A stretch of 64,000 nucleotides of DNA from an uncultured bacterium. GTDB lineage: Bacteria; Patescibacteriota; Minisyncoccia; Phycocordibacterales; GWA1-40-21. Below the pieces are notes generated by a model. That model was not told the origin of the DNA, searched no databases, and saw nothing but the letters and a program-made list of their open reading frames with translations. The stretch covers positions 12,887 to 76,886 of the forward strand of contig CAWJAN010000005.1 of the NCBI GenBank assembly GCA_963840885.1, read 5' to 3'. Below, piece by piece: positions 2,790-34,405 of the stretch. A program made the position numbers and the translations under genes. Numbering within the stretch: position 1 is the stretch's first letter; each line of letters begins with the position of its first letter.

Positions 2790-3704
2790 TCATTTGAACG
2801 AAAAAAGAGAGAGGAATTTCATCGGATCTATGGCTATGCCATTTATATGAACCGATAAATGCAAATGCGGCCCGCTTGCATAACCGGTAGCGCCTGAAAG
2901 GCCAATGATTTCTCCCTGCGTCACGATTTCACCGACATGAACATTTATTTTTGAAAGATGCATATAATATGTTTCAAGACCTAAGCCGTGATCTATAACT
3001 ATTGTCTCGCCATAATCAACAAAACTGCGCGCAAGAGTAACTATACCGCTGTTTGATGCGGAGACTGGCGTTCCGACATCGGCACGAAAATCCGTGCCCT
3101 TATGAACGATATCGTATGCGCCGCTGTCGCGCGAATAGCCATACGGATCAGTCACGGTATGATCCGGTACCGGAAAAATGAATGCGCCATTCCATAGCTC
3201 AGTCGTAGTGCTTTTGAGAGAAGCGAGCGATGCATTTTCTTGTCCAAGAGTGCTGACCACCTTGGCCTGGTTTGCGGCTGAATTTCCGCCGAGCTGCTCG
3301 GGAACCGGAAGCGATTCTGTTTCCAAAAGGCGCTGATGCACGGCGAGCGTTGCTGTTGCGACACGACCATCGGTCAGATCAGCTTCAATTTCAAAAGTGC
3401 CCGTAGCGGCATGAAGATCGATGCCAAGAAATGCGCTTGGTTTATCATCATATTCAAATAATGACGCTGGTGATCCATTAAACATAATAGTGCGCACTTC
3501 GGACATATTTGTTCCGTTTATTTCTACAAGTGCCGGATCTCCTTGCATTAATGATGATGGCATTACCGAAACAGAAAAAGCGCTTGAAGATGAGGAGGAA
3601 ATATTTGTCATCGTGGCAACGGAAAGAGTGCTTGTAGAGTGTGAGCCTAATATCCCTAAAATAAACGCCATTATTGTCGCATAAAGAAATTTCAGCATAA
3701 GCAT
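2790..3704 (-). CDS. M23 family metallopeptidase (LytM-like), secreted
   Basis: N-terminal signal peptide and an HLHLSVHINGIAIDP (HxH) motif. It is convergent with the permease gene. Confidence 0.75.
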   Translation of the reverse strand: MLMLKFLYATIMAFILGILGSHSTSTLSVATMTNISSSSSSAFSVSVMPSSLMQGDPALVEINGTNMSEVRTIMFNGSPASLFEYDDKPSAFLGIDLHAATGTFEIEADLTDGRVATATLAVHQRLLETESLPVPEQLGGNSAANQAKVVSTLGQENASLASLKSTTTELWNGAFIFPVPDHTVTDPYGYSRDSGAYDIVHKGTDFRADVGTPVSASNSGIVTLARSFVDYGETIVIDHGLGLETYYMHLSKINVHVGEIVTQGEIIGLSGATGYASGPHLHLSVHINGIAIDPMKFLSLFSFK

Positions 3705-3734
3705 ATGTCTTAAGTATACCGCAAAAATGGCAGT

Positions 3735-3763
3735 TTGACTGAATCGGCATAGTGGTGTATCAT
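3735..3763 (+). promoter_or_regulatory. Sigma70-like promoter for the RRM gene (TTGACT-N17-TATCAT)
   Basis: Hexamers were read directly from the sequence, about 95 nt upstream of the start codon. Confidence 0.35.
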
Positions 3764-3857
3764 TTATAGCGTTAAGAAATATCTTGAATGTTTGGAAGAA
3801 TAGTCATCTTTCTCCTCAAGTAAAGTCTTACGGTTAATAAGATAATTTAGTTTGTAA

Positions 3858-18110: not shown

Positions 18111-18374
18111 ATGATTAAGAAAAAATATATAATTATACTTTTAGCTATTTTTCTCGTTCTTTCGGCTTTTGCGGCGTACTATATATATTATCTGAACATG
18201 GCCCACAGTACGTTCGAAAACTATTATGCTTTTCGTGGTTGCACAACCTTGGTTGAAAAAACCGATACTTATGGAATCTGTAATACAGATTCCGGACAAA
18301 CAATAAAAATAGTTAAATTCCAAAATGCATGGTATCTGGATGGCGACCTGCCATGCAGCTTTTTGTGTTTCTAG
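18111..18374 (+). CDS. Small Cys-containing membrane/secreted protein
   Basis: N-terminal TM segment and 4 Cys residues. Confidence 0.35.
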   Translation: MIKKKYIIILLAIFLVLSAFAAYYIYYLNMAHSTFENYYAFRGCTTLVEKTDTYGICNTDSGQTIKIVKFQNAWYLDGDLPCSFLCF

Positions 18375-18448
18375 TGGGCGATACAGGGTTCGAACCTGTG
18401 ACCTTGCGAATGTGAATCGCACGCTCTAACCAACTGAGCTAATCGCCC
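18375..18448 (-). tRNA. tRNA-Val (anticodon CAC)
   Basis: Manual fold of the reverse complement: GGGCGAT acceptor, GCTC/GAGC D-stem, TGCGA-TTCACAT-TCGCA anticodon arm, GTTCGAAC T-loop and discriminator A. Confidence 0.85.
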
Positions 18449-18485
18449 CGAATATTTTTTTGTAAATTTGCAAGCGCACCAAACT

Positions 18486-18509
18486 AGCCCAAACAGCTAA
18501 TCGCCCTAC
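18486..18509 (-). pseudogene. Remnant of the tRNA-Val 5' half (GGGCGATTAGCTG...)
   Basis: A 12-nt exact match to the tRNA-Val 5' end plus partial anticodon-arm similarity; no T-arm is present. Confidence 0.35.
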
Positions 18510-18593
18510 TCAAAAATTTATATCATGAAAAAAACTTTAATACTATTTTGATTTTTATCATATTATATAATATACTTTGCGGGTTATTATTTT

Positions 18594-18666
18594 GGGCCGC
18601 TAGCTCATTTGGTAGAGCGCATCCATGGCATGGATGAGGCGACCGGTTCGATCCCGGTGCGGTCCA
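18594..18666 (+). tRNA. tRNA-Ala (anticodon GGC)
   Basis: Manual fold with G3:U70, a CATCC-ATGGCAT-GGATG anticodon arm and a GGTTCGATCC T-arm. Confidence 0.85.
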
Positions 18667-18684
18667 CTAGGAGCGGATAATAAA

Positions 18685-18755
18685 GGGCCTATAGTATAGT
18701 GGTAGCACGCGTCATTCGCATTGACGAGACCCGGGTTCGACTCCCGGTAGGTCCA
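18685..18755 (+). tRNA. tRNA-Ala (anticodon CGC)
   Basis: Manual fold with G3:U70, a CGTCA-TTCGCAT-TGACG anticodon arm and a GGGTTCGACTCCCGG T-arm. Confidence 0.8.
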
Positions 18756-18798
18756 CATAAGAATAAAATGAAAAGCGGTTTTCATTTTATTCTTATGT
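18756..18798. repeat. Perfect 19-bp inverted repeat (hairpin) directly after tRNA-Ala
   Basis: CATAAGAATAAAATGAAAA-gcggt-TTTTCATTTTATTCTTATG. Confidence 0.55.
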
Positions 18799-18904
18799 GG
18801 ACGGCGTAGGTATATTTTGCACAGCAGTACAAAATACCGAGCCAGGGTCGTGAAAATTTTCGAGTGACAGCAAGAAAATTATTCCTGACCACAAGTTGAA
18901 TATT

Positions 18905-18976
18905 CGGAGCGTGGTGTAACGGTAACATATACGATTCGGGTTCGTATGACTCCGGGTTCAAATCCCGGCGCTCCGA
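18905..18976 (+). tRNA. tRNA-Pro (anticodon CGG)
   Basis: Manual fold with C1:G72, a TACGA-TTCGGGT-TCGTA anticodon arm and a GGGTTCAAATCCCGG T-arm. Confidence 0.85.
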
Positions 18977-19062
18977 CAATTAAATTTTTATTGACACCTC
19001 AAATCAAATAACATAAAGTTATTTGAAAGAGTTCTTAATTGAAATTTCAAAGGAGGTGCATT

Positions 19063-19272
19063 ATGTCTTCAAAAAAGAAAACTGCGCCTGCTTTTTTGCA
19101 GGATACGTGGATAAAAAATGAGCAGAGAGATGCAAAATTCGGCGATACTTTCCGGCCTCTATTGCTTCTTGGCGTAGCCACTATGTGTCCTTATTGCAAT
19201 ATGGTCATAAGCAATGAATATCTTCTTGACGGGCATGATTGCCCCGAGTGCAAGAAAAGGATCAAAGATTAA
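19063..19272 (+). CDS. Tiny zinc-ribbon protein (CxxC...CPxC), paralog 1
   Basis: SD AAAGGAGG 7 nt upstream. Contains CPYCNMVISNEYLLDGHDCPEC. Confidence 0.5.
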   Translation: MSSKKKTAPAFLQDTWIKNEQRDAKFGDTFRPLLLLGVATMCPYCNMVISNEYLLDGHDCPECKKRIKD

Positions 19273-19297
19273 TTATCTGTGGTCCTTTTTTGTTTGT

Positions 19298-19326
19298 TTG
19301 ACATGATATCTTATATAATTTAATAT
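19298..19326 (+). promoter_or_regulatory. Sigma70-like promoter TTGACA-N17-TAATAT for zinc-ribbon paralog 2
   Basis: Hexamers were read directly from the sequence. Confidence 0.4.
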
Positions 19327-19360
19327 AAAAGCTAGGATTATTCTGAAAAGGAGGCGCGCT

Positions 19361-19561
19361 ATGGTTTTTGAGTTTACTCAACCGGAGCCGCCACAACCAA
19401 CTGGCGGACCGGACAAATATATAACCGAAGAAGACAAAAAGTTTTGCCTAGGCAATCTATCTATCTTGATAGATGAGAAAAGGGCAGAGCGTTGCAGGGG
19501 ATGCAACCGAATAACAAGCAATGAGTATATGAATGCGTTTCATCATTGTCCGGATTGCTGA
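19361..19561 (+). CDS. Tiny zinc-ribbon protein, paralog 2
   Basis: SD AAAGGAGG upstream. CRGCNRITSNEYMNAFHHCPDC shares a C..CN..SNEY....HCP.C pattern with paralog 1. Confidence 0.5.
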   Translation: MVFEFTQPEPPQPTGGPDKYITEEDKKFCLGNLSILIDEKRAERCRGCNRITSNEYMNAFHHCPDC

Positions 19562-19651: not shown

Positions 19652-21229
19652 ATGAGAAGCATTCTATATCACACTAAGCATTTCATAAAAAACAATAAGT
19701 GGTGGTCGGCTTTGATAGCCATCGTCCTTCTTATAGTAATCTATTTCGTTTTCGTTAAAAAACCTGCAAGCACCATAGGAAGCACCGTTACCGTAGAAAG
19801 CAGGAATATAACAGAAGAGGTGAGTGCGACCGGAAACGTCAAGCCGCTCTCCGATATAAGCATGGCTTTTGAAACCGGGGGCAAAGTTTCCGACATCGCC
19901 GTTTCAATAGGAGACAAAGTATCGGCCGGGCAATATCTGGCTTCGGTATCTAATTCTGACCTTTCCGCCGCAGTAGACCAGGCGAAAGCGAGCTTGAGTG
20001 CGGCAGAAGCCGACCTTGCAATACTGAAAAACGGCTCAACCCCTCAGCAAATAGCCGTGAGCCAATCACAAGAACAAGAAGCTCTCGGAAATTTTAATCA
20101 GGCAAAAAGTGCTCTTATAAACTCGATACAAGACGCATACACAAAATCGGATGATGCCGTAAGGAACAAGGCTGATTCCATGTTCGATAATCCAAGAAGC
20201 TCGACTCCGAAGCTAAGCTTTGACACGACGAATTCACAGCTGTCTATAAATGTAGATTTGGAGAGGGAAAATATCGAGAATACCCTTTTAGACTGGAACA
20301 ATTCCTCAGTAAATCTTACTCCTGATTCGGATTTGCAGTCTGCTGCGGATATCGCAAATCAAAACCTAGACTTGATCAAAAATTTCCTGAACGACGTGAA
20401 TCTTTCGCTTAACAGCGCCGTCATAAGTTCTTCCGTCACTGAAGACGTCATAAGCAGCTGGCAGGCAAGCATAGCAACGGCAAGGACAAACATAGCGCTT
20501 GCAATAAGCAATATGTCTTCGGCTTCAACCCAATACAATTCCATGGAATCACTTTTGAAAGTCGCGGAAGATCAGCTTACTCTCACAAAAGCTCCCGCCA
20601 CAGACAACCAGATAAAAGCTCAGCAAGCGTTAGTGGACCAGGCAGCGGCTAATGTTGAAAATGCAAAAGCAAAACTTGAAAAAACAATCATACGTTCTCC
20701 TATAGACGGAACCATTTCCAGAGTCGATACCGATGTCGGGGAAACGGTACAAAGCGGGGTAAATGTGATTTCTGTTATTTCTTACGGCGAATACGAAGTG
20801 GAGGCTTTTATTCCGGAAGCGGATATAGCTAAAGTAAAGATAGGCGATGTGGCTACTACAACGCTTGATGCTTATGGTTCGGATACTTTTTTCCAGATGA
20901 CAGTAATAAAAATAGATCCGGCGGAAACAGTCATAGAAGGCGTCCCTACATATAAGGTGACTTTGAAATTCGCATCAGATGACAGCAGGATAAAATCTGG
21001 TATGACAGCAAACCTCGACATACTTACAGGGCAAAAATATGGCGTGCTTGCGGTGCCAGCAAGATCAGTTTATTCTGTCGATACCCAAAAATACGCGCAG
21101 CTGGTGGATTCTGAAAATAAAATCGCTGATGTTCCGGTTCAAACTGGTATGCGCGGAGTCGACGGATACATAGAAATCATTTCCGGTTTAAAGGAGGGAG
21201 ATACAATTGTAGGATCTCCGAATATCTAA
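19652..21229 (+). CDS. Efflux-transporter periplasmic adaptor subunit (HlyD/MacA family)
   Basis: N-terminal TM, a long coiled-coil, and a C-terminal beta-barrel region (IIRSPIDGTISRV...LAVPARSVY). Confidence 0.8.
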   Translation: MRSILYHTKHFIKNNKWWSALIAIVLLIVIYFVFVKKPASTIGSTVTVESRNITEEVSATGNVKPLSDISMAFETGGKVSDIAVSIGDKVSAGQYLASVSNSDLSAAVDQAKASLSAAEADLAILKNGSTPQQIAVSQSQEQEALGNFNQAKSALINSIQDAYTKSDDAVRNKADSMFDNPRSSTPKLSFDTTNSQLSINVDLERENIENTLLDWNNSSVNLTPDSDLQSAADIANQNLDLIKNFLNDVNLSLNSAVISSSVTEDVISSWQASIATARTNIALAISNMSSASTQYNSMESLLKVAEDQLTLTKAPATDNQIKAQQALVDQAAANVENAKAKLEKTIIRSPIDGTISRVDTDVGETVQSGVNVISVISYGEYEVEAFIPEADIAKVKIGDVATTTLDAYGSDTFFQMTVIKIDPAETVIEGVPTYKVTLKFASDDSRIKSGMTANLDILTGQKYGVLAVPARSVYSVDTQKYAQLVDSENKIADVPVQTGMRGVDGYIEIISGLKEGDTIVGSPNI

Positions 21230-21233
21230 AGCA

Positions 21234-21953
21234 GTGGCTCTCATAGAGGTAAAAAATCTTTCCAAAGTCTACGATAATGAGGGCGTAAAAACCGACGCTC
21301 TTCACGATATAAACTTGAATGTAGAAAAAGGCGAGTTTCTTGCGATTATGGGCCCGTCCGGTTCCGGCAAATCGACATTGCTGCAGATACTCGGCCTTTT
21401 GGACAATCATACGCATGGCACATATCATTTCGCCGACAAAAACGTAAAGCTTTACGATGAAAATGAAATCGCAAAGATAAGGAATCAAAAAATGGGATTT
21501 GTTTTTCAGGCATTCAACCTGCTTCCGCATCTGACACTCATAGAAAACGTTAAGATGCCTCTTTTGTATTCTGATAAGCCGGAACATGAATGGGATAAGC
21601 GCGCGGAAGACGCTCTTATATCAGTAGGCCTCGGACACAGGCTCACTCATCAGGCATTCCAGCTATCAGGAGGAGAAAAACAGCGCGTAGCTATAGCTCG
21701 CGCCCTGGTTAACGATCCTGAAGTTATTTTTGCCGATGAGCCTACCGGAAACCTGGATTCAAAATCAGGACAAGCCGTCATAGAGATAATAGAAAAGCTC
21801 AATTCTGAGATGGGACATACGATAATTCTGATAACTCACGAAACGTATACCGCAGAATATGCCCAAAGGATAGTTAAGCTTCTTGACGGACAGATAGAAA
21901 GCGACCATAAGGTGAAAAACAGAAAAACTAGCCGTGATCATTTTATAAAATAA
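21234..21953 (+). CDS. ABC transporter ATP-binding protein (MacB-type), paralog of 847-1563
   Basis: [24 protein letters not shown] and [11 protein letters not shown] motifs; about 55% identical to the first ATPase by eye. Confidence 0.85.
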
Positions 21954-23191
21954 TGAAATTAAGACATAGCATCAAAACAGCGACCGAAGGGCTAATGACG
22001 CACAAATCTCGTTCCGCTCTTACTATTATAGGAATCGTAATCGGCATAACCTCGATAATCCTTGTCATGTCTCTAGGCCAAGGAGCGCAAAATCTGATTC
22101 TTGGAGAAGTAAACGGGCTTGGAGCAACGACTATAGCCGTGATACCTGGAAAAATTTCAAGCGGACCGTCCAGCTTCGCAACAACGCTTTCCGATTCTCT
22201 GAAGCAAAAAGATCTTACCGCTATAGAAACAAAAACAAATGTCCCGTATGCGACCCGCGTCATGCCCGTAATGATAAGCGGCGCAAATGCCGTATATGGA
22301 AATAAGGTTTATCAAGTCGGATTATTCGGCGGAACGCAGCTGATGCAACAGATTTTCAATATTACCGTTGGCAGGGGAGATTTTTTTACCGATGACGATG
22401 TTTTAAGCAATCAGGCCGTTGCGATAATAGGAAATGACGTGAAAGACCATTTATTCGACGGTGAAGATCCTCTTGGTCAGAAAATCAGGATAAACAATAC
22501 GACTTTCAAGATTATCGGAGTATTGCCTGCAAAAGGGCAGTCCGGTTTCGTAAATTTTGACAGCGGAGTTATTATGCCGTACACGACCGCCCAGCAATAC
22601 GTACTCGGCGTAAAATATTTCAGCCGTATTATTGTTGAGGCCGACTCGCAAGATCATATACAGGCTACAGCAGAAGATATAACCAATACATTGAGAAATT
22701 CTCATAATATTACCGATCCTGCAAATGATGATTTCACCGTAGAGACTCAGGCGGATATAGCTTCAACGCTAAATACCGTAACGACAGCCCTGACTGCATT
22801 CCTTGCGGCAGTTGCAGCCATATCCCTTATAGTGGGCGGAATAGGGATCATGAATATAATGCTCGTATCGGTTACAGAAAGAACGAGGGAAATCGGCCTA
22901 AGAAAAGCTCTAGGGGCAACAAACCATGACATACTGGTACAATTTCTTCTTGAAGCTGTAATGCTTACCGGCTCCGGAGGAATAATTGGGATTATTTTGG
23001 GAGGTTCATTATCTTTCATAATATCTCTCATACTTAAAAACGCACTCGGCCTGAATTGGCAGTTTGTTTTTCCTTGGAGCGCAGCCGTCCTCGGTATTGT
23101 TGTTGCAAGCCTTGTAGGACTTGTTTTCGGAATCTATCCGGCACGGCAGGCATCAAGAAGAAGCCCTATGGAAGCCCTGAGATACGAATAA
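21953..23191 (+). CDS. ABC transporter permease (MacB/FtsX-type)
   Basis: Same architecture as 1572-2789, with REIGLRKALGATNHDI. Confidence 0.8.
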   Translation: MKLRHSIKTATEGLMTHKSRSALTIIGIVIGITSIILVMSLGQGAQNLILGEVNGLGATTIAVIPGKISSGPSSFATTLSDSLKQKDLTAIETKTNVPYATRVMPVMISGANAVYGNKVYQVGLFGGTQLMQQIFNITVGRGDFFTDDDVLSNQAVAIIGNDVKDHLFDGEDPLGQKIRINNTTFKIIGVLPAKGQSGFVNFDSGVIMPYTTAQQYVLGVKYFSRIIVEADSQDHIQATAEDITNTLRNSHNITDPANDDFTVETQADIASTLNTVTTALTAFLAAVAAISLIVGGIGIMNIMLVSVTERTREIGLRKALGATNHDILVQFLLEAVMLTGSGGIIGIILGGSLSFIISLILKNALGLNWQFVFPWSAAVLGIVVASLVGLVFGIYPARQASRRSPMEALRYE

Positions 23192-23233: not shown

Positions 23234-23464
23234 ATGGGATTCTTCAAAAATTTAATGCTTAAGCAAGCGCTCAAAACGCAAGCGAAAGATATGCCGCCTG
23301 AACAAAAAGATAAGCTCATGGCCGCATTCGAAAAAGATCCGGCATTCTTCGAAAATATAGAAAAACAGATAAAAATGCGAATGAAGCAGGGGAAAGGGCA
23401 GTTCGAAGCTTCAATGGAAGTAATGAAAGAAAATCAGGATAAGCTAAGAAAATTGATGCAATAG
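23234..23464 (+). CDS. Small hypothetical charged/helical protein (76 aa)
   Basis: ORF followed by a strong terminator. Confidence 0.4.
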   Translation: MGFFKNLMLKQALKTQAKDMPPEQKDKLMAAFEKDPAFFENIEKQIKMRMKQGKGQFEASMEVMKENQDKLRKLMQ

Positions 23465-23480
23465 ATATATAAATTTAGAC

Positions 23481-23520
23481 AAAAAAATAAGGCCGTCTCT
23501 TTTGGAGACGGCCTTTTTGA
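23481..23520. terminator. Bidirectional rho-independent terminator
   Basis: AAGGCCGTCTC-tttt-GGAGACGGCCTT stem flanked by A and T tracts, lying between convergent genes. Confidence 0.6.
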
Positions 23521-23535
23521 ATCTTGAAACTACTA

Positions 23536-24546
23536 CTAAGGCCTTATTACGAGGCCGGCGTTCACGGAGAATTCCGCAAACGTCGAGGTGTCGACTGTGA
23601 AGGGAATACTGGTCACGCTCCCGAGCTTATACAGCTCTCCTGAAAACGTGAACCCGAATCCGTCCGTGATGGGAAAAATTGATCCCAACTCGAACACTAT
23701 CGAGCTTGCCGTATCCGTGTGAGGGAACGGTGTCCCACCGATCATCAACTTATTGTCGATACCAGCGAACTTCACGCCGAGTCCCGCGTAAGGAAGCCAA
23801 TGTTCATCCTTAACCGGATAAACCTTGGCCATAAGCTCCCATGAATCAGTGATTCCCACAGTTCCGATTGATGCCCCGTAAACTTTCTTTTCGAGGGACG
23901 TATTTCCGGAATCATGAGAGACCATCAGGCCGACCTTGCCGGCAATGATTCCTTCAACCGAGAACTTCTGGCCTACATTGCTCGAGCTAGTCGTGGAAAA
24001 TCCTTGCGGATCTTCCGACTGACTTCCAAAGCTTGCTGCCACTTGTTCCCAACTGAACTGAAACCATCTGTCGCTGAACTTCCGATCAACCGATTTCTCT
24101 TTCACCAATTTTGTCGGTGAAGGAGTCGGGCTTGCCGTCGGTGAAACTTTCGCTTCGACGACAATAATCGTTCGCGATTCCTTGAGGACCTCGTTGTTCC
24201 GAGTCGTCTTCGTGTACACGATGGTGAACATTCCGATCTTGGACGTATCGATCATGTTGATCGCTACGAGCTTGATCGGTCCGTCAACATCGCGCGGTCC
24301 GTGAGCAATCGCGCCTGGATCTACATACACTGAACCTTTCATCACAGTCACCGGATTCTGCCCGATGATCTCGATGTAAAATGGAAACAGCTTTTTCTTG
24401 TGCTTCACGATCTTCTTGTGAGTGCTTTTGGCACTCGCTGAAGTCGTGTCTTTGTAGGGCGGCGCTTCATAAGCATTCGCCGCCCTCGCAATCGAAAAGC
24501 TGAACCAGAACAGCATCATGGTGATGAGAAACGTAAGCTTCTTCAT
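23536..24546 (-). CDS. Secreted protein on a GC-rich (compositionally foreign) segment. It has an N-terminal Ig-like module homologous to the repeats of the giant protein, a P/T/S linker, and a C-terminal beta-strand-rich domain
   Basis: Signal peptide MKKLTFLITMMLFWFSFSIARA. The module FYIEIIGQNPVTVMKGSVYVDPGAIAHG...TIVYTKT aligns to the APVITILGSNP..Y.DAGA consensus. About 55-58% GC against a ~39% background. Confidence 0.6.
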   Translation of the reverse strand: MKKLTFLITMMLFWFSFSIARAANAYEAPPYKDTTSASAKSTHKKIVKHKKKLFPFYIEIIGQNPVTVMKGSVYVDPGAIAHGPRDVDGPIKLVAINMIDTSKIGMFTIVYTKTTRNNEVLKESRTIIVVEAKVSPTASPTPSPTKLVKEKSVDRKFSDRWFQFSWEQVAASFGSQSEDPQGFSTTSSSNVGQKFSVEGIIAGKVGLMVSHDSGNTSLEKKVYGASIGTVGITDSWELMAKVYPVKDEHWLPYAGLGVKFAGIDNKLMIGGTPFPHTDTASSIVFELGSIFPITDGFGFTFSGELYKLGSVTSIPFTVDTSTFAEFSVNAGLVIRP

Positions 24547-24777
24547 CTTGTACCTTCCTTCTTCCGGATTTTATCCGGAAAATTATTTAGTAGATTTTCA
24601 AAAAATTCAATTCGGTGAGACAAGAATCTTGCTTCACCATTGAAAAACTCCGTTCATAATAATAAACCATATATAAAAAATGTCAAGAGAGATTATGCAT
24701 GAAGGTATTATGATATTAGGGTAATAATTTATACTTTAAAGAAATATTAAATATATAAGACAAATGACAAAAACCCT

Positions 24778-25121: not shown

Positions 25122-28100
25122 ATGACTACAAACAAAAGAAACATCATCAAAATGCTCAGCAACGTATTCATCGTTGTCCTTTTTGCTGTTTCTTTTTCTT
25201 CCGTAGCATATGCTGATTACTCAACCACGACCGTCTTAAACACAAGCGGGTCATTTGTAGTTCCGCAAGGAGTTACTGGGTTGACCTTTAGCGTTGTTGG
25301 CGGAGGAGGAGGAGGCGGCGGAGGAGCATTCACGTTCGCAGGCGGAGGAGGAGGATCGGCTTCTGCCATTTTAAATACAAATATCTCTGTAACACCAGGA
25401 CAGACGATTTCTTACACTGTAGGAAACGGCGGTAATGGCGGATACGGAGGCTCAATGCAATTTGCCGGAGGCAATGGAACAAATGGAGGTTCAACTTCAT
25501 TCGGTTCCACGACAGTATCCGGAGGATTCGGAGGCCAAGGTGCAGCTTATGGAAATCCATCAAGCGGCATCGGCGGACTTGCGGGAGGCATTGGAGGATC
25601 CAACGGAACAAACGGAGACACATTCTTTGGCCAGAGAGTCAAAGGTGGAAACGGGGGTTCTAACGCACTCGGAACGGCGGGAGTCGGAGGTTCCGGTAAT
25701 TCTTCATCGTATGTTCTTGCAACCGCAGGAACGAACGGTGCGGGAGGGGGAGGAGCAAGCGGATGGCAGTTCAACTCAAATGGCACAGCTGATGCTGGCG
25801 CCACTGGAGGAAACGGCTCAATCGTTGTTTCTTACTATGCAGATCTTACTGCCCCTGTAATTACAATTTTAGGATCAAATCCTGAAACAATAACAGTTGG
25901 CACTCCATACGCTGATGCCGGAGCTATAGCTCTCGACAATATCGATGGAACGACAACAGTCGCAACTGTTTCAAACAATGTTGATATAAACACTGTTGGA
26001 ACATACGAAGTTGTTTACTCTGCTACAGATACAGCAGGAAACAATTCAATGGCAACAAGGACGGTTAATGTTATCGCTGCTCCTGACACCATTGCACCTG
26101 TTATTACTATCCTGGGTTCTAATCCGGCAACCACAACCGTGGGATCAACATACGTTGATGCCGGAGCTACAGCCTTCGATAATGTCGACGGTACAACTAC
26201 TGTAAACATCGCCTCAAACGATGTAGACACAAATGCAACAGGAACATATTCTGTTGTTTATACTTCGACAGATTCTTCAGGAAACACGGCCACAGCAACA
26301 AGAGTTGTTATTGTGGGCGTAGCATCTCCAGTAGATACTACTGCTCCAACAGCACCTCTTATTTCAACGACAACGGCCGCAACCGGAACAATAACCCTCT
26401 CTGAGGATATTGCCTGGTTTGATTCAACTGATTTGGAATCCGGTGTAGCTTATTATCTCTATCTTTGGGATAACTCAAGCGCAACCGTGCTTTCAACTAC
26501 GACCGCGGGAGTCTCGACGACAACTTCGACAACTACCAACTTAACGGCATTTGGAACATATTGGTTCCATGTCGCAGCTGTTGATAATGCCGGAAACGTG
26601 TCCTTGACGACAACTTACGGTCCATTTCTGATTTCTGATTCAAATGTCCTTTATGTAAATTCAACCATCGGAGGAACACTTTACTCATTGTTTTCGCCAT
26701 CTCTTGCCGAAGCTGCAATAGCTTCTACGACAGGCGCAACAACAATAGTAAATTCGAGCATTTCCGTATGGTGGGACATAAACGATTCAAACGTAATAAA
26801 TACAACAGTAAACGATGTGGCGATGAACTTGGTTGATGCGACAAATTCAACACTTATCAATGACGATATCGGAAACTGCCAGATCATAAATTCTGACGTT
26901 GAAAATTATTACTTGAGAAATTGCTACGTGGCATTCTCTGTGCTTGATCCATCCACACTCTACTCGTTCACAAATTCAACGAGCACGAACTCACAGATCT
27001 ATGCTTCAAATATCGACAGTTCAACAATCGATCATTCATACGTGGCGACTTCGACTATCGGCAATTCGAACATTTCATTCTCGACAACGACTGATTCGAC
27101 CGTCGCTTCATCAACGATAAGCAACGGTTCGATTATTTCTTCTTCAACAGTGGAAATAAGCACTGTCGATAATTCAAATGTATCGTCTTCAACAGTAAGC
27201 ACGAGTACCGTCACCGATTCTTCAATAGTAAATTCTACATTTACGAACTCGGCTTCGGACAATTCAACAACGACTGATTCGGCTGTTGATACATCATCGC
27301 TTACAAATTCAACCGTAAGCTCAAGCTCCGCTACAAATTCGACGATAACCGATTCAACGCTTACAAACAGCACCTCGACTGATTCGACGATAACATCTTC
27401 GAATCTCGACACAGTTGTCGTTGCAAGCTCGACGATAGCAAGCTCGACGATAGCAGATGCAACAATTACCGATGCGATAATAATCGACAATACTATCTAC
27501 AGCGGCACGATCACATATAACGGAACAACAACCGTCATATCTACATCGACTCCGCTCGGAAGCCTTATCGAATATGCGCCGGTAGCAGCATTCTCTGTCG
27601 CTACAAGCAATCTTCAGATGAACATCACGGACAATACCGTCGACCTTAACAGCGGAACGGTATTTCCTGACAGCTGGACATATATGTGGGATTTCGGAGA
27701 CGGAACCTCGACAACAGTCCTTGCATCAACAACCGGACAAAACATATCTTATACGTACGCAACAAGCGGAACATATACGGTATCTTTGACCGTTACTGAC
27801 GGATACGGAAAAGTTTCCACGACTTCAAGCCAGGTAACCATAGTAAATAATCCTGATACGATTGCTCCAGTAATTACGATTCTCGGATCAAATCCGGACA
27901 GCGTAGTTGCTGGAACAACTTACACCGATGCAGGCGCAACAGCATTCGACAATGTAGACGGAACCACAACAGTGGCAACCATCTCTAACAATGTTGATAC
28001 TTTGACTCTCGGAACATACCAGGTTGTTTACTCGGCTACTGACACGGCAGGAAACAATGCGACAGCTACAAGAACTGTAAATGTAGTTTCTGCTCCGGAC

Positions 28101-30854
28101 ACGATTCCTCCGGTAATTACAATAAACGGATCGAGCACTGTAAACGTATTCCAAAACTCTACATATACGGATCAGGGCGCGACAGCATTCGACAATGTTG
28201 ATGGAACGACAAGTGTAAGCATCTCATTTAACGATGTAGATACTTCGGCTACCGGAACATATTCCGTCGTATATTCTTCAACCGATTCTTCAAGCAATAC
28301 GGCATATGCTACGAGAACCGTAGATGTCATCGGAGCGCCGGGCGACGTAGTTCCTCCAGTCATCACCATCACAAACGGAACGCCGACAACGGTTTTGCAG
28401 AATTCAACATATGTTGATGACGGCGCAACCGCATTCGATAACGTTGATGGTACGACTTCAGTTGCAACCATCTTCAATGATGTCGATACTGCAGCTACCG
28501 GAACATATTCAGTAGTCTATTCGGCAACGGATACTGCGGGAAATAATTCGCAGGCGACGAGGACGGTGGATGTTATTGCCGGACCAACCGACAATACGCC
28601 TCCAGTCATCACCATCACAAACGGAACGCCGACAACGGTTTTGCAGAATTCAACATATGTTGATGACGGCGCAACCGCATTCGATAACGTTGATGGTACG
28701 ACTTCAGTTGCAACCATCTTCAATGATGTCGATACTGCAGCTACCGGAACATATTCAGTAGTCTATTCGGCAACGGATACTGCGGGAAATAATTCGCAGG
28801 CGACGAGGAATGTAAATGTCGTCGAAGCTACAAGCTCAGACAATATTCCGCCTGTAATCACAATAATAAACGGAACACCTACAACTATCACAGTTGGTTC
28901 AGTTTATACGGATGCAGGAGCTACGGCATTCGACAATATTGATGGAACTACGACAGTAACGACAATCTCAAACAATGTTGATTCAAATACTGTCGGAACA
29001 TATCAGGTTGTCTACTCAGCCACAGACGTAGCTGGAAATAACGCAACGGCGACAAGAGACGTAAATGTCATAAGCGGAGCTTCCGACAATACGCCTCCAG
29101 TCATCACCATCACAAACGGAACGCCGACAACGGTTTTGCAGAATTCAACATATGTTGATGACGGCGCAACCGCATTCGATAACGTTGATGGTACGACTTC
29201 AGTTGCAACCATCTTCAATGATGTCGATACTGCAGCTACCGGAACATATTCAGTAGTCTATTCGGCAACGGATACTGCGGGAAATAATTCGCAGGCGACG
29301 AGGATAGTAAACGTAATCGATCAGGACACTGTTGCCCCAGTCATAACGATTCTTGGCAATAATCCGGAAACCATTACTCAGTACATGACATATACAGATG
29401 CAGGCGCAGTAGCATTCGATAATGTCGACGGTTCAACGACTGTAACGATAATCTCGAACAATGTTGATACTTCGGCAACTGGAACATATTCTGTCGTCTA
29501 CTCAGCAACCGATATGTCAGGCAATGCCGCAACGGCAACCAGAACAGTTAATGTTACAGCGGACACACAGGCACCTGTCATAACGATTCTCGGAAATAAT
29601 CCTGAGAATGTGTTGCTAAACTCAGTCTATACTGATGCAGGCGCAACGGCCTTCGACAATGTCGACGGCACGACAACAGTCAATGCCACAGGCACGGTAG
29701 ATACCGCAGCGACTGGCACATACCAAATCGTCTATTCATCGACTGATTCTTCAAGCAATACGGCATATGCTACGAGAACTGTAGATGTCATTGCAGCTTC
29801 AAGCTCGGCAAAACAGATTCTTTCCTTCGACTTCAACGGCCTATCACCTGCAGCAACGGGAACGATCAACCAGATTTCCGGAACTATAAATTTGACTGTT
29901 CCTTCAGGAACAAATGTTACAAATCTTGTTCCGACAATCTCATTGTCCGCAAGCGCAAGCGTCAATCCTGGATCAGGAGCGGCTAATGACTTCACAAATC
30001 CTGTCGTATATACGGTTACCGCCCAAGACCTTTCAACATCGACATACACGGTCACGGTAACAGTTGCGACAACATCGACATCGACGCCAGATACTACTGC
30101 TCCGGCAATAACGATACTCGGGTCAAATCCAGTAACGCTTACTGTCGGCTCGTCATACACTGATGCAGGCGCAACAGCATTCGACAATGTTGATGGCGTA
30201 ACAACTGTAACGATAGCTTCAAACGATGTTAATACTTCGATTGCAGGTTTGTATCATGTCGTATATACATCGACTGATTCTTCAAGCAACACTTCGTTTG
30301 CAACAAGAACAGTTAATATCATTTCGACAAGTTCAAACAGTGGGGGACAAGTAACTATATTCGGCGGAGTCCCTGGACCATACGTTCCACCGACAACTCC
30401 GACATATACCGAACCAACACCTTCAACACCAGTTGTAACCACACCGGAAACACCTGCAGCACCTACGACACCGCAAACGCCGGCAAACAATACGCCTTCC
30501 GCAGGAACGAATAACAGCATCTCCGGAACGGAAAGCTCGTCTGGCAATCAGGCAAGCGGCGCATCAAATGCTGGAAATTCCATAGATTCTGCACTTGGCG
30601 GAATAATAGGAACGACTGGTGAATCGCAGGGCGGAGGATCAACATCTGCGGAAACAGCTACGACCGCAGCATCAACGACCGCAAACTCGTCAAACAAGAG
30701 TTTGGTGGCAACAGTACTTGAAGGTTTGTCGAGCGCAAAAGCTCTCTGGACAATACTCATACTTTTGCTCATCGCAGTAGCTTCATACATAACTTTCAGA
30801 CACTATAGCGAAAACGAAAGCCAAAACCAAAGCCAAAATAAGAAAACTAAATAA
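25122..30854 (+). CDS. Giant (1910 aa) cell-surface protein. Architecture is signal/TM, Gly-rich region, tandem Ig-like (DUF5011/HYR-like) modules, PKD domain, S/T/N-rich beta-solenoid-like region, Pro/Thr stalk and a C-terminal TM anchor
   Basis: A single uninterrupted ORF. The motifs were read directly from the translation (see finding). Confidence 0.85.
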   Translation: MTTNKRNIIKMLSNVFIVVLFAVSFSSVAYADYSTTTVLNTSGSFVVPQGVTGLTFSVVGGGGGGGGGAFTFAGGGGGSASAILNTNISVTPGQTISYTVGNGGNGGYGGSMQFAGGNGTNGGSTSFGSTTVSGGFGGQGAAYGNPSSGIGGLAGGIGGSNGTNGDTFFGQRVKGGNGGSNALGTAGVGGSGNSSSYVLATAGTNGAGGGGASGWQFNSNGTADAGATGGNGSIVVSYYADLTAPVITILGSNPETITVGTPYADAGAIALDNIDGTTTVATVSNNVDINTVGTYEVVYSATDTAGNNSMATRTVNVIAAPDTIAPVITILGSNPATTTVGSTYVDAGATAFDNVDGTTTVNIASNDVDTNATGTYSVVYTSTDSSGNTATATRVVIVGVASPVDTTAPTAPLISTTTAATGTITLSEDIAWFDSTDLESGVAYYLYLWDNSSATVLSTTTAGVSTTTSTTTNLTAFGTYWFHVAAVDNAGNVSLTTTYGPFLISDSNVLYVNSTIGGTLYSLFSPSLAEAAIASTTGATTIVNSSISVWWDINDSNVINTTVNDVAMNLVDATNSTLINDDIGNCQIINSDVENYYLRNCYVAFSVLDPSTLYSFTNSTSTNSQIYASNIDSSTIDHSYVATSTIGNSNISFSTTTDSTVASSTISNGSIISSSTVEISTVDNSNVSSSTVSTSTVTDSSIVNSTFTNSASDNSTTTDSAVDTSSLTNSTVSSSSATNSTITDSTLTNSTSTDSTITSSNLDTVVVASSTIASSTIADATITDAIIIDNTIYSGTITYNGTTTVISTSTPLGSLIEYAPVAAFSVATSNLQMNITDNTVDLNSGTVFPDSWTYMWDFGDGTSTTVLASTTGQNISYTYATSGTYTVSLTVTDGYGKVSTTSSQVTIVNNPDTIAPVITILGSNPDSVVAGTTYTDAGATAFDNVDGTTTVATISNNVDTLTLGTYQVVYSATDTAGNNATATRTVNVVSAPDTIPPVITINGSSTVNVFQNSTYTDQGATAFDNVDGTTSVSISFNDVDTSATGTYSVVYSSTDSSSNTAYATRTVDVIGAPGDVVPPVITITNGTPTTVLQNSTYVDDGATAFDNVDGTTSVATIFNDVDTAATGTYSVVYSATDTAGNNSQATRTVDVIAGPTDNTPPVITITNGTPTTVLQNSTYVDDGATAFDNVDGTTSVATIFNDVDTAATGTYSVVYSATDTAGNNSQATRNVNVVEATSSDNIPPVITIINGTPTTITVGSVYTDAGATAFDNIDGTTTVTTISNNVDSNTVGTYQVVYSATDVAGNNATATRDVNVISGASDNTPPVITITNGTPTTVLQNSTYVDDGATAFDNVDGTTSVATIFNDVDTAATGTYSVVYSATDTAGNNSQATRIVNVIDQDTVAPVITILGNNPETITQYMTYTDAGAVAFDNVDGSTTVTIISNNVDTSATGTYSVVYSATDMSGNAATATRTVNVTADTQAPVITILGNNPENVLLNSVYTDAGATAFDNVDGTTTVNATGTVDTAATGTYQIVYSSTDSSSNTAYATRTVDVIAASSSAKQILSFDFNGLSPAATGTINQISGTINLTVPSGTNVTNLVPTISLSASASVNPGSGAANDFTNPVVYTVTAQDLSTSTYTVTVTVATTSTSTPDTTAPAITILGSNPVTLTVGSSYTDAGATAFDNVDGVTTVTIASNDVNTSIAGLYHVVYTSTDSSSNTSFATRTVNIISTSSNSGGQVTIFGGVPGPYVPPTTPTYTEPTPSTPVVTTPETPAAPTTPQTPANNTPSAGTNNSISGTESSSGNQASGASNAGNSIDSALGGIIGTTGESQGGGSTSAETATTAASTTANSSNKSLVATVLEGLSSAKALWTILILLLIAVASYITFRHYSENESQNQSQNKKTK
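28353..28562 (+). repeat. Intragenic direct repeat, copy A (~210 bp, identical to B and C)
   Basis: Begins CCTCCAGTCATCACCATCACAAACGG and ends GCAGGCGACGAGG. Confidence 0.8.
28599..28808 (+). repeat. Intragenic direct repeat, copy B
   Basis: Same sequence as copy A, offset by 246 nt (82 codons). Confidence 0.8.
29094..29303 (+). repeat. Intragenic direct repeat, copy C
   Basis: Same sequence, 495 nt downstream of copy B. Three identical antisense ORFs in the ORF track confirm the identity. Confidence 0.8.
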
Positions 30855-30880
30855 TATAGTCTAAGAAAGTTTTGTAAGAC

Positions 30881-30918
30881 AAAATCGCCGGCACAAAAAG
30901 TGCCGGCGATTTTGCTTT
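30881..30918 (+). terminator. Rho-independent terminator of the giant gene
   Basis: ATCGCCGGCAC-aaaaa-GTGCCGGCGAT 11-bp stem followed by a T tract. Confidence 0.65.
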
Positions 30919-30950
30919 ATAATTTTTTTAAAAATGCTAAAGTGATTCCT

Positions 30951-32048
30951 ATGTCATTATCGATAGGAATAGTCGGACTTCCAAATGTGGGAAAATCCAC
31001 TCTTTTCAACGCTCTCACTAGAAAGAGCGTTCTTGTCGCAAATTATCCTTTCGCAACTATAGATCCGTCTGTCGGCGTAGTTGCTGTGCCTGATGACAGG
31101 CTTTTCAAGCTTTCTGAATTTTCCAAATCGGCAAAAACCGTTCCGGCCGCAGTGGAGTTCGTTGATATCGCCGGGCTTGTGAAAGGCGCATCCGTTGGGG
31201 AAGGGCTTGGAAATAAATTCCTTACCAACATAAGAGAGACCGATGCGATAGCGGAAGTTGTCAGGATTTTTGAAGACGACAATATAATCCACGTCGCAAA
31301 TAAAATCGAGCCGCTCTCCGATATAGAAACGATAAATCTCGAGCTTATCTTGGCTGATCTGCAAACTGTTACAAAAAGACTTTCAAATCTTGGAAGCGAA
31401 ATCAAAAAGGGAAGCAAGGTTGCCATAATAGAAAATGGGGCGCTGGAAAGGCTTAAGACCGCCCTTGAAGCCGGGAAGCTCGCAAATACTGTAACGTTTG
31501 ATGAAAAAGAAAACGCCGAAATAAAAAAGCTTGGCCTTATCACCATGAAGCCCATCCTTTACGTTCTGAACAAAAAATCGGGAGGAAAAAATCTGGATGA
31601 AATGAATGACGGAAGATTTGCCGGACTTATAAAATTTTTTAAAGATAATAATTTCAAATATGTGGTTGTGGATGCGGGAATCGAGCAGGAGCTAAAAGAT
31701 ATGGAAGGGAAAGATAAGACAGAAATGCGCGAAGGGCTCGGAGTAAAAGATGACGGAATAAACGAACTTATAAAAGCCGGCTATGATTTGCTCGGCCTTA
31801 TCACTTATTTCACTACCGGAGAAGATGAAACCCGCGCCTGGACCATTAAAAAAGGATGGACGGCGCCGGAAGCAGGAACCGCCATTCACGGCGATTTCAA
31901 AGAAAAATTTGTTCGCGCCGAAGTTATTGAATGGAACAAATTGCTTGCCGCCGGCTCATATGGAGCGGCCCGCGAAAAAGGTTTGGTACGTACTGAAGGA
32001 AAAGAATATACCGTCAAAGATGGCGATGTCATAGAATTCAAAATATAA
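30951..32048 (+). CDS. ychF: Ribosome-binding ATPase YchF (Obg-family GTPase)
   Basis: MSLSIGIVGLPNVGKSTLFNALT and a C-terminal TGS domain. The start is at ATG 30951, downstream of the terminator. Confidence 0.85.
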   Translation: MSLSIGIVGLPNVGKSTLFNALTRKSVLVANYPFATIDPSVGVVAVPDDRLFKLSEFSKSAKTVPAAVEFVDIAGLVKGASVGEGLGNKFLTNIRETDAIAEVVRIFEDDNIIHVANKIEPLSDIETINLELILADLQTVTKRLSNLGSEIKKGSKVAIIENGALERLKTALEAGKLANTVTFDEKENAEIKKLGLITMKPILYVLNKKSGGKNLDEMNDGRFAGLIKFFKDNNFKYVVVDAGIEQELKDMEGKDKTEMREGLGVKDDGINELIKAGYDLLGLITYFTTGEDETRAWTIKKGWTAPEAGTAIHGDFKEKFVRAEVIEWNKLLAAGSYGAAREKGLVRTEGKEYTVKDGDVIEFKI

Positions 32049-33670: not shown

Positions 33671-34405
33671 ATGAACCATTTATTACCGATTCTGCTGTCA
33701 GCTGCAACATTTGTTTCAACATTCATAGGCGGCCACATAGCAATCAGATACAAAAAGTGGCTTCACTATATAATGTGCTTTACCGCCGGAGTCCTTATCG
33801 GTGTCGTTGCATTCGATATCTTTCCGGAAATCGTCAGTATTATAAAGGAAAATAATTTCGATGCGACCGGCGTTTCAATCGCAGGCATTATCGGATTTAT
33901 TCTTTTCTTTATTTTTGAGACGAAAATCCTTATGCATCATTCGCATGAGGATGAGTACGGGGAGCATAAGCATCCGCATGTAGGCATAGCATCTGCTATT
34001 GCTCTTGCGGGACACAGCTTCATGGACGGCGTCGGCATCGGACTCGGATTTCAGGTAAATCAAGCTGTCGGTATTCTGGTCGCAATCGCAGTGATTGCCC
34101 ATGATTTCACGGACGGCATGAATACTGTGACACTTGTCCTCCTGAACAAAAATCACGAGAATACCGCAAAAAAGTTTTTGTATATAGATGCTATTGCGCC
34201 TATTCTCGGGGTTGTCTCAACATTGTTCTTCCATCTGCCGGAAAGCTTTTTGGTTTTGTACCTGGGCTTTTTTGCAGGATTCCTGTCTTACATAGGCGGG
34301 AGTGACATCCTGCCGGAAGCGCATAGCGAGGGAAGTTCTAATACAAAAATCGCTCTTACGCTTTTCGGCTTGCTCTTTATTTTCATCGTAACTCGTTTTG
34401 TATAA
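33671..34405 (+). CDS. ZIP-family divalent metal transporter (ZupT/GufA-like)
   Basis: His-rich loop HHSHEDEYGEHKHPH and the TM motifs AGHSFMDGVGIG and AHDFTDG. Confidence 0.7.
   Translation: MNHLLPILLSAATFVSTFIGGHIAIRYKKWLHYIMCFTAGVLIGVVAFDIFPEIVSIIKENNFDATGVSIAGIIGFILFFIFETKILMHHSHEDEYGEHKHPHVGIASAIALAGHSFMDGVGIGLGFQVNQAVGILVAIAVIAHDFTDGMNTVTLVLLNKNHENTAKKFLYIDAIAPILGVVSTLFFHLPESFLVLYLGFFAGFLSYIGGSDILPEAHSEGSSNTKIALTLFGLLFIFIVTRFV

Follow-up and report, generated by a model that had tools for sequence, protein, structure and literature searches.

An apparently resident, GC3-rich gene for a predicted Ig/beta-barrel surface protein of Paceibacteria-type bacteria in the candidate phyla radiation

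Introduction

Small outer-membrane beta-barrels of the OmpW/OprG/AlkL type (PDB 2f1t, 2x27, and 6qam) have 8 strands. OmpA possesses, in addition to its N-terminal transmembrane (TM) domain, a C-terminal domain that binds peptidoglycan, and the functional parts of Opa and Ail are their loops. The barrels of autotransporters have 12 strands, with the linker threaded through the pore. In this study, a gene for a predicted protein with a barrel of the OmpW/OprG/OmpA type was characterized in a 64-kb stretch of DNA from an uncultured bacterium (contig CAWJAN010000005.1; the window refers to this whole stretch). The gene, hereafter the target, is a 336-aa open reading frame (ORF) at 23536–24546 on the minus strand. 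An earlier analysis of the letters and translations (the sequence-only reading) placed this ORF correctly, as seen in the translation, and took it for a horizontally acquired gene, possibly from a high-GC host or donor.

The ORFs of the window include dnaK, dnaJ, grpE, rpoA, ribosomal-protein genes, and a short alaS. Its DnaK is 88–89% identical to those of Paceibacterota/Patescibacteria metagenome-assembled genomes (MAGs), and the organism is a Paceibacteria-type bacterium of the candidate phyla radiation (CPR). CPR bacteria have been proposed to have no outer membrane (PMC6744442, PMC10160955, PMC8871954), and a conserved barrel of the outer-membrane protein (OMP) type is therefore unexpected in this lineage. 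From the results described below, we consider it moderately likely that the target is a vertically maintained CPR envelope gene, that a giant adhesin is its partner, and that its high G+C content at third codon positions (GC3) is due to selection that acts on the nucleic acid itself and probably favors a stable mRNA.

Architecture of the Target Protein

The coding sequence (CDS) and its parts are:

23536–24546, minus strand: whole CDS, with signal peptide, spacer, Ig-like module, Pro/Thr linker, and predicted beta-barrel; GC 50.3%, GC3 0.617
24481–24546, minus strand: predicted Sec-type signal peptide, aa 1–22, MKKLTFLITMMLFWFSFSIARA, cleavage after ARA, read from the translation
24148–24384, minus strand: Ig-like module, aa 55–133, PF16403 (Bact_surface_Ig-like), from the Pfam match and the identity to the giant protein
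24109–24147, minus strand: Pro/Thr/Ser linker, aa 134–146, KVSPTASPTPSPT, from the translation; region of the recombination breakpoint in relatives
23539–24108, minus strand: predicted small antiparallel beta-barrel, aa 147–336, of OmpW/OprG/OmpA type, from profile and AlphaFold2 (AF2) model

The N-terminus consists of MKK, a hydrophobic core and ARA, with the cut at MKKLTFLITMMLFWFSFSIARA/AN (read off the translation without a dedicated predictor), and this pattern is common to all family members. All peptide strings quoted in the sequence-only reading are present in the translation, as are its signal peptide and SPTASPTPSPT linker.

The same reading had likened the C-terminal domain to an outer-membrane beta-barrel or a wall-binding domain, and our results agree with the first of these guesses. 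The hidden Markov model (HMM) check that it proposed gave a divided answer. The target alone scored below threshold against Pfam OMP_b-brl (PF13505; 14.4 bits vs. a cut-off of 28.7, E = 0.045), but 15 of 22 family members matched this domain, the best with an E-value of 7e-8. Moreover, the profile of the 22 relatives matched the PDB entries of OmpW, AlkL, OprG, and OmpA with E-values from 1.4e-4 to 5e-3. The AF2 model, which was built on the barrel alone with the 22 remote relatives aligned, is all-beta, with a predicted local distance difference test score (pLDDT) of 89.7 and a predicted template modeling score (pTM) of 0.79; a full-length model from 5 sequences reached just pLDDT 36.6. DSSP assigned 10 strand segments and no helix of at least 4 residues to the barrel model, in which a closed antiparallel barrel fold of at least 8 strands is predicted. 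All 29 PDB matches found by Foldseek at E ≤ 1e-3 were outer-membrane-embedded beta-barrels. OprG was the best of them (E = 1.2e-8, TM-score 0.69), and OmpW and OmpA were among the leaders. From profiles and model, the C-terminal 185–190 residues are firmly predicted, at the family level, to form an OmpW/OprG/OmpA-type beta-barrel.

Similar to OmpW, OprG, and AlkL, which gave the best profile matches (E = 1.4e-4 to 2e-3) and the best fold matches (E = 1e-8 to 1e-6, TM-score 0.62–0.69), the target has a Sec signal peptide and a barrel of ~185 aa. Unlike these proteins, to which it is just 13–16% identical and whose Pfam thresholds it does not reach, the target carries an N-terminal Ig module and a linker, has no C-terminal Phe, is modeled with up to 10 strand segments by DSSP instead of 8 strands, and belongs to a host lineage thought to be without an outer membrane. 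The target also resembles the N-terminal TM domain of OmpA and Opa, OmpX, Ail, and NspA in fold and profile, and two family members were named 'opacity protein-like surface antigen' by the Joint Genome Institute (JGI). By analogy with the OmpA, Opa, and Ail barrels, the target could plausibly serve as a surface anchor or adhesin. However, the extra domain of the target is N-terminal and Ig-like, unlike that of OmpA, and the functional loops of Opa and Ail set these two proteins apart from it.

In type V secretion, which includes autotransporters and intimin/invasin, a barrel anchor and an Ig-like or adhesive passenger are likewise joined by a linker. The order of passenger, linker, and C-terminal barrel in the target is that of classical autotransporters, and Ig-like passengers are found in intimin. 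However, the target barrel of ~185 aa is too small and aligns best to 8-stranded OprG/OmpW. PF03797 (Autotransporter) was not matched by the target and was matched weakly by one of 22 relatives (E = 0.002). Given the lack of this match, the small barrel and the absence of a pore helix from the model, identity as a type Va autotransporter was rejected. In the target protein, a known Ig domain is fused to a new variant of the known OMP barrels that is restricted to one clade. In one relative, a giant protein of 2008 aa (P0010; relatives are referred to by P numbers and their loci by L numbers), 13 separate stretches matched positions 110–164 of the barrel profile, and this protein may be a repeat protein made of the barrel hairpin unit.

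The neighbor with which the Ig-like module was compared is:

25122–30854, plus strand: giant surface protein, 1910 aa, divergently transcribed, conserved partner (from ORF list and domain scan)

The giant protein comprises a signal/anchor, a Gly-rich N-terminal domain, 11 PF16403 modules, a PKD domain, and a C-terminal TM helix. The target module is a bona fide PF16403 domain (formerly DUF5011; E = 1e-9, 38.7 bits vs. a cut-off of 27, aa 58–129, profile positions 1–71 of 71), and BLASTP against the giant protein gave 33–40% identity for every one of its 11 modules (E = 1e-13 to 2e-9), as expected from the homology noticed in the sequence-only reading. Different from the modules of the giant protein, which carry GATAFDNVDGTT at this point, the target module is single-copy and possesses its own signature, GAIAHGPRxVDGPI, that is shared with the orthologs P0002 and P0006. 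The shared signature points to an old, separate lineage of the target module rather than to a recent copy of a giant-protein module. The Ig module is missing from some orthologs (P0005, P0007, and P0011). The divergent pairing of the target with a Gly-rich/Ig giant adhesin was found in 6 further locus types (L001, L085, L088, L089, L091, and L093), in line with the previous suggestion that the two genes form one module.

Base Composition of the Target and Its Homologs

The overall GC content of the target was 50.3%, lower than the 55–58% given in the sequence-only reading, and a recount of 23561–23620 yielded 32 G+C of 60 instead of 35. The proposed sliding GC profile did reveal a deviation: the target is the GC-richest 1-kb stretch of the window (99.9th percentile; window mean 41.6%, standard deviation 2.6%). 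The flanking genes, which had been put at a uniform 38–40% GC, are indeed low in GC but range from 38 to 46%. GC3 of the target was 0.617 vs. 0.423 ± 0.048 in 49 other ORFs of the window (z ~4), whereas GC1 (0.47) and GC2 (0.43) were ordinary. The compositional anomaly thus sits almost wholly at third codon positions; the target is a real outlier, mainly in GC3, and a smaller one than had been stated. Enrichment mainly concerns NNG and NNC codons, such as AAG, ATC, ACG, GCG, GTG, and CCG, and A-ending codons are depleted. The GC step falls exactly at the start codon and at the stop/terminator, so that the excess is confined to the CDS, and the intergenic DNA on either side is 23–36% GC.

Some simple explanations were rejected. 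An assembly chimera was discarded, as the identical GC step is present in independent assemblies from JGI, the European Nucleotide Archive (ENA), and Logan. An antisense ORF does not account for the composition either, as the antisense strand of the gene holds just one ORF, of 68 aa, which is not conserved. Moreover, the other minus-strand genes are ordinary in GC3 and folding, which speaks against an effect of strand or replication orientation.

The GC3 of the target exceeded that of its neighbors in 10 of 10 lineages, and in 7 of them by 0.19–0.49 (target vs. neighbors):

Window: 0.62 vs. 0.42
L001/L004: 0.74 vs. ~0.25
L085: 0.71 vs. ~0.25
L002: 0.54 vs. ~0.35
L089: 0.51 vs. 0.17–0.30
L091: 0.66 vs. 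0.24–0.43
L093: 0.56 vs. 0.20
L090: 0.645 vs. ~0.56
L088: 0.29 vs. ~0.2
L095: 0.61 vs. 0.525 (one short neighbor)

When six lineages were pooled, nearly all codon families were shifted to G/C endings with odds ratios of 1.7–3.6, except for the Gly box. A queuosine-tRNA pattern, in which Phe and Ile are shifted and Asp, Asn, and Tyr are not, was seen in one lineage only and disappeared upon pooling of the six.

Distribution of the Family and Origin of the Target

The target family is very rare. It formed 5 clusters among 5.8 billion proteins, and an exhaustive HMM search of 1.84 billion representative proteins identified 24 members. A word-indexed search yielded 7 matches with the full-length alignment, which was swamped by Ig words, and 4 with the barrel alignment, and a metagenome scan with a narrower alignment gave 2 loci, of which 1 was new. 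No relatives were found in 185,579 species-representative genomes by a family-alignment scan or in phages and plasmids by tblastn.

Two conserved elements besides the giant gene are recognized at the locus:

23234–23464, plus strand: convergent 76-aa gene (MGFFKNL...), adjoining the target in 8 locus types, distant ones included
18374–18977, no strand assigned: tRNA cluster Val-CAC, Ala-GGC, Ala-CGC, and Pro-CGG, syntenic in several lineages

The product of the 76-aa gene has no known domain. The same tRNA cluster occurs at 2118–2574 of L002, 9005–9481 of L085, and 2003–2406 of L090. All 10 readable locus types are low-GC Paceibacteria-type contigs, and wherever the contig is long enough, at least one flanking gene is in the same arrangement. 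The shared layout is giant adhesin, target, 76-aa gene, and MacB-ABC-HlyD or PDDEXK nuclease together with the tRNA cluster. This gene order is common to L001, L002, L004, L085–87, L088, L089, L090, L091, and L093, and synteny extends to relatives just ~20–25% identical. Between the window and the L001 lineage, the identities were 50–53% for the target and 55–56% for the neighboring MacB. In both genes, a fraction of ~0.30 of the fourfold-degenerate sites was identical, which means saturation.

These results bear on the view that the whole gene was recently transferred from a high-GC donor or host and that its GC content has not ameliorated. Such a transfer would fit the fact that no other gene of the window deviates as far in GC and GC3, and OMP-type barrels are typical of diderms, which makes an ancient diderm origin plausible. 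Lateral exchange, moreover, does happen at this locus. However, the orthologs are syntenic in 10 locus types in low-GC contigs, no high-GC homologs were found, and the nearest homologs belong to the same lineage, an outcome that the sequence-only reading had itself named as contrary to its proposal. The divergence of the target equals that of its neighbors, and the largest GC3 excess is found in the AT-richest genomes (0.74 vs. 0.25). Of the 24 representatives, all readable ones have the same flanking genes, and the 185,579 representative genomes, the phages and the plasmids yielded no homolog. No ORF for an integrase, transposase, or insertion sequence was found between 19.6 and 32 kb, and the flanking repeats are just short, chance-level ones. 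Insertion at a tRNA is not indicated either, as the tRNA cluster lies 4.6 kb from the target and is itself within the conserved synteny. A donor signature in base composition cannot outlast saturated synonymous divergence, and the GC3 excess must therefore have been kept in place. Recent acquisition is thus highly improbable and already largely refuted.

Similar to horizontally acquired genes and genomic islands, the target is atypical for its genome in GC content and codon usage (GC3 z ~4). Unlike them, it occupies the same place in all relatives examined without patchy presence, is not accompanied by mobility genes, has a GC step bounded by the CDS and has kept its composition despite saturated synonymous divergence. 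Synteny and divergence point to a resident envelope gene of a Paceibacteria-type CPR clade that has been vertically maintained and not recently imported. The target may serve as a warning that atypical GC content need not mean horizontal transfer, as a GC3 excess of up to 0.49 can be gene-specific and persistent.

At one locus, L085 (JGI Ga0265297_10013435; MCK9629690.1), the protein is assigned by NCBI to a Bacteroidales MAG. The contig has the gene order of the window, ~39% GC and the same tRNA cluster, and the assignment is probably due to mis-binning. In L001 (1749–7323 and 10754–12832), the giant, HlyD-like, and target genes are split into several ORFs, which reflects either frameshift-type assembly errors or pseudogenization. 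Two ABC/MacB-type efflux sets are present in the window, at 847–2789 and 19652–23191. The one beside the target (19652–23191) includes an HlyD/YknX-like periplasmic adaptor. This set is missing at the locus in L002, L090, and L091 and is therefore no obligatory part of the module. In L091, the barrel gene and the 76-aa gene are separated by a small ORF (3466–3774, plus strand) that has a raised GC3 of 0.53 and whose N-terminus resembles that of a lipoprotein (..LSSCAGG..).

Exchange of the Barrel Cassette

The loci L085 and L001 were 95.8% identical from the giant gene through the intergenic region to nt 430 of the target and 90.7% identical past its stop codon, whereas the 556 barrel-coding nt between these regions had no detectable nucleotide similarity. 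Similarly, the N-terminal parts of P0027 and P0003 were 94% identical and their barrels 36%. A dissimilar barrel amid flanks of 91–96% identity is thus the result of a cassette swap whose breakpoints fall within the linker and at the stop codon. Exchange of the barrel within the clade is the sole sense in which horizontal transfer applies to the target. Such a pattern is typical of surface-exposed parts that undergo diversifying selection, and the exchange of the barrel as a cassette between close relatives within a population suggests that host receptors, phages, or predators exert this kind of selection on it.

Cassette replacement also raises the question of whether the target, as a surface-antigen gene, is a recombination hot spot in which GC-biased gene conversion raised GC3, with folding as a by-product or unrelated. 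The replacement between contigs otherwise 91–96% identical, the shift of nearly all codon families, and the independence of target GC3 from the GC3 of the host genome would all fit such a process. However, the Ig part, in which L085 and L001 have remained 95.8% identical without a swap, is equally GC3-rich (0.74), no conversion-tract gradient accompanies the GC step at the start codon and stop/terminator, and the Gly box is unaffected. Nor does this process account for the excess of folding over composition-preserving shuffles described below, which at L088 comes with a low GC3 (0.29; fold z = -7.6). The effect sizes of GC-biased gene conversion reported for bacteria are, moreover, far smaller. 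Gene conversion is thus rather unlikely as the explanation.

Excess Folding of the Coding Sequence

The minimum free energy (MFE) of the native target CDS was ~0.07 kcal/mol per nt below that of synonymous-codon shuffles. At -0.068 kcal/mol per nt, the target was the most extreme of ~55 genes of the window, most of which were within ±0.02, and the excess recurred in 9 of 11 orthologs. The z values of folding against synonymous-codon shuffles were:

Window: -8.8 (-5.6 on 900 nt with 40 shuffles)
L085: -8.4
L004: -8.0
L002: -7.3
L089: -7.1
L088: -7.6
L093: -11.3
L090: -5.6
L091: -3.1

Against dinucleotide-preserving shuffles, the z values were -8.2 and -7.4. The sense strand was more structured than the antisense strand, both in whole-gene folds (-8.2 vs. 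-5.4) and in 5 of 7 windows of 300 nt. Because L088 is low in GC3 yet equally structured, the conserved property seems to be pairing rather than GC itself. In Escherichia coli, the structure of a CDS correlates with mRNA abundance, and RNase E cleaves unpaired A/U-rich sites (PMC4619774). Overall, a generic structuredness of the CDS is maintained, and its most likely cause is selection on the mRNA. Such selection at the nucleic-acid level would favor a heavily structured, A/U-poor mRNA that resists endonucleases, and resistance would in turn lead to a long-lived, abundant message. The persistence of GC3 despite saturated sites and the excess folding energy are observed, and mRNA stability as the selected trait is inferred. 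GC3 excess and self-complementarity point to synonymous sites that are shaped by selection or by some local process.

Several observations weigh against this explanation. Two members have little excess structure, L095 (z = -0.9) and L091 (z = -3.1). Folds of the antisense strand likewise exceeded those of its shuffles (z = -5.4 and -6.5). The additional complementarity is thus for the most part common to both strands, and a mutational process or one at the DNA level, instead of selection on RNA, could be its source. Individual helices are poorly conserved, as just 41 of 347 MFE pairs are common to the window gene and its L002 ortholog, and compensatory pairs are in modest excess (20 of 44 vs. 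13.7 ± 2.4 by permutation). In addition, the target is followed in the window by a gene for a ZIP-family transporter (33671–34405, plus strand), whose folding excess is the next largest at -0.045 kcal/mol per nt (z = -4.3 to -7.8). With regard to the protein, the window gene product ends in ...AGLVIRP without the C-terminal aromatic residue typical of OMPs, and CPR bacteria are presumed to be without an outer membrane in which a classical OMP barrel would sit.

In view of these results, two narrower ideas were rejected. A purely sense-strand RNA signal does not agree with the excess structure of the antisense strand, and a single specific conserved RNA structure does not agree with the few pairs shared by the MFE folds of orthologs and with the weak compensatory support. 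Alternatively, the hairpins might have arisen by mutation or another process at the DNA level. For instance, template switching at quasi-palindromes in a highly transcribed gene oriented head-on could generate inverted repeats and raise GC without any role for the RNA. Such an origin would explain why the excess is seen on both strands and why specific helices are not conserved, and the target is among the few minus-strand genes in a window of nearly all plus-strand genes. However, four other minus-strand genes have a GC3 of 0.39–0.42, and the three of them that were folded gave z values from +0.9 to -0.6. Moreover, sense structure is consistently above antisense structure, as noted above, and the property persists across lineages with saturated synonymous sites. 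We therefore regard such an origin as quite improbable and selection on the mRNA as the better explanation.

Expression Signals and Codon Usage

The predicted signals around the target are:

24659–24686, minus strand: predicted sigma-70-like promoter TTGACA-16-TATTAT, 11/12 match, from the sequence
24599–24638, minus strand: leader stem-loop GGTGAAGCAAGATTCTTGTCTCACC (24638–24614), then a U-rich tract, near the predicted 5' end of the transcript
24553–24580, minus strand: second leader hairpin TTCCGGATAAAATCCGGAA, abutting the Shine-Dalgarno sequence AAGGAAGG, from the sequence
23489–23515, minus strand: predicted intrinsic terminator, 11-bp stem with 7 GC pairs, then T7, from the sequence

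The -35 box of the promoter is kept in 8 of 9 orthologous leaders, and a comparable hairpin with a U-tract is found in the leaders of L088, L089, L090, and L093. The stem-loop at 24599–24638 may be a 5' stabilizer or a transcription attenuator. In the former case, it would parallel the ompA mRNA, a classic long-lived message that is stabilized by a 5' stem-loop. The Shine-Dalgarno sequence of the target is strong, and the intrinsic terminator, likewise a strong one, makes the target a monocistronic unit. Together, promoter, leader stem-loop, Shine-Dalgarno sequence, and terminator would fit a strongly expressed, stabilized monocistronic message. Rfam gave no match within or around the target gene, and NCBIfam gave nothing useful for the target.

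Strong promoter and Shine-Dalgarno sequences would also be expected if the target were by far the most expressed gene and G/C-ending codons were optimal, or if rare codons throttled translation for export. Three of the four clustered tRNAs (Val-CAC, Ala-CGC, and Pro-CGG), which are conserved beside the locus, read only the G-ending codons GUG, GCG, and CCG, all of which are among the most enriched codons of the target. It is only a hypothesis, however, that the tRNA cluster is tied to these codons, and in L091, which is without most of the cluster, target GC3 is still 0.66. Ribosomal-protein genes lean slightly in the same direction for AAG, ATC, CAC, and AAC. However, nine ribosomal-protein/translation genes, rpoA, and dnaK have an ordinary GC3 of 0.34–0.50, do not prefer ACG, GTG, or CCG, and correlate poorly with the target in codon preferences (r = 0.21), and the genome's optimal-codon set was thus rejected as the cause. 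Moreover, synonymous shuffles keep codon usage, so that the folding excess does not come from codon choice alone. Translational selection of this kind is thus unlikely.

Possible Location and Role of the Barrel

The protein would be exported via its Sec signal peptide, and the barrel would act as a membrane anchor that holds the Ig module in a lipid layer through the flexible Pro/Thr linker. With the giant Ig-repeat adhesin, it would most likely form a cell-surface or host-attachment module. This anchoring and partner role is inferred, whereas domain identities and synteny are observed.

A terminal Phe is present in roughly half of the family (11 of the 22 members of alignment A3), for instance ...GLVARPF in P0006 and ...GLVMRPF in P0027. 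No Omp85, Lpt, or Lol genes were found in a scan of all but about a dozen ORFs of the 64-kb window. Possible membranes for the barrel are an unrecognized outer layer of CPR cells or, after secretion, the outer membrane of the host. In the latter case, the secreted barrel would insert spontaneously into the host outer membrane and its Ig module would provide a self-supplied dock for the giant adhesin, by analogy with Tir/intimin. The Ig module would be exposed, as both termini of an even-stranded barrel stay on the side from which it inserts. By further analogy with OmpW/AlkL, the barrel might provide a lateral route for lipids of the host, which CPR bacteria cannot make. We consider insertion into the host speculative and unlikely. 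An alternative that is equally unexpected is that these CPR bacteria own an outer-membrane-like layer. If either were true, the hyper-structured, GC-rich message could be a device that keeps one mRNA long-lived in cells with very few ribosomes.

The target is unusual in its host lineage, in the coupling of a persistent GC3 excess to excess folding, and in the exchange of its barrel cassette. The view that CPR bacteria have no outer membrane is hard to reconcile with an OMP-type barrel family that one of their clades conserves and that is confined to this clade. Thus, the pairing of barrel and adhesin provides a testable handle on the CPR envelope and host interface, with the giant adhesin as the best candidate for host attachment.

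Other Observations in the Window

Excess folding was also observed elsewhere. The 5' kilobase of the giant gene (25122–26350, plus strand) had a codon-shuffle z of -6.4, with z values from -3.3 to -6.1 in sense windows of 300 nt and -4.8 in L085. Past the tRNA cluster, the region 19001–19450, which contains two small conserved ORFs (66–69 aa), had 300-nt fold z values from -1.6 to -6.6, and in the 300-nt window at 19301 the value was below -6 on both strands; this region may hold structured RNA or terminators. At 30701–31150, where the giant gene ends and ychF begins, fold z values ranged from -4.5 to -7.5 on both strands. Finally, the ORF at 222–812 (plus strand), with a GC2 of 0.685 and a GC3 of 0.305, overlaps the ORF at 170–724 (minus strand) and is probably the shadow of a real gene on the opposite strand.

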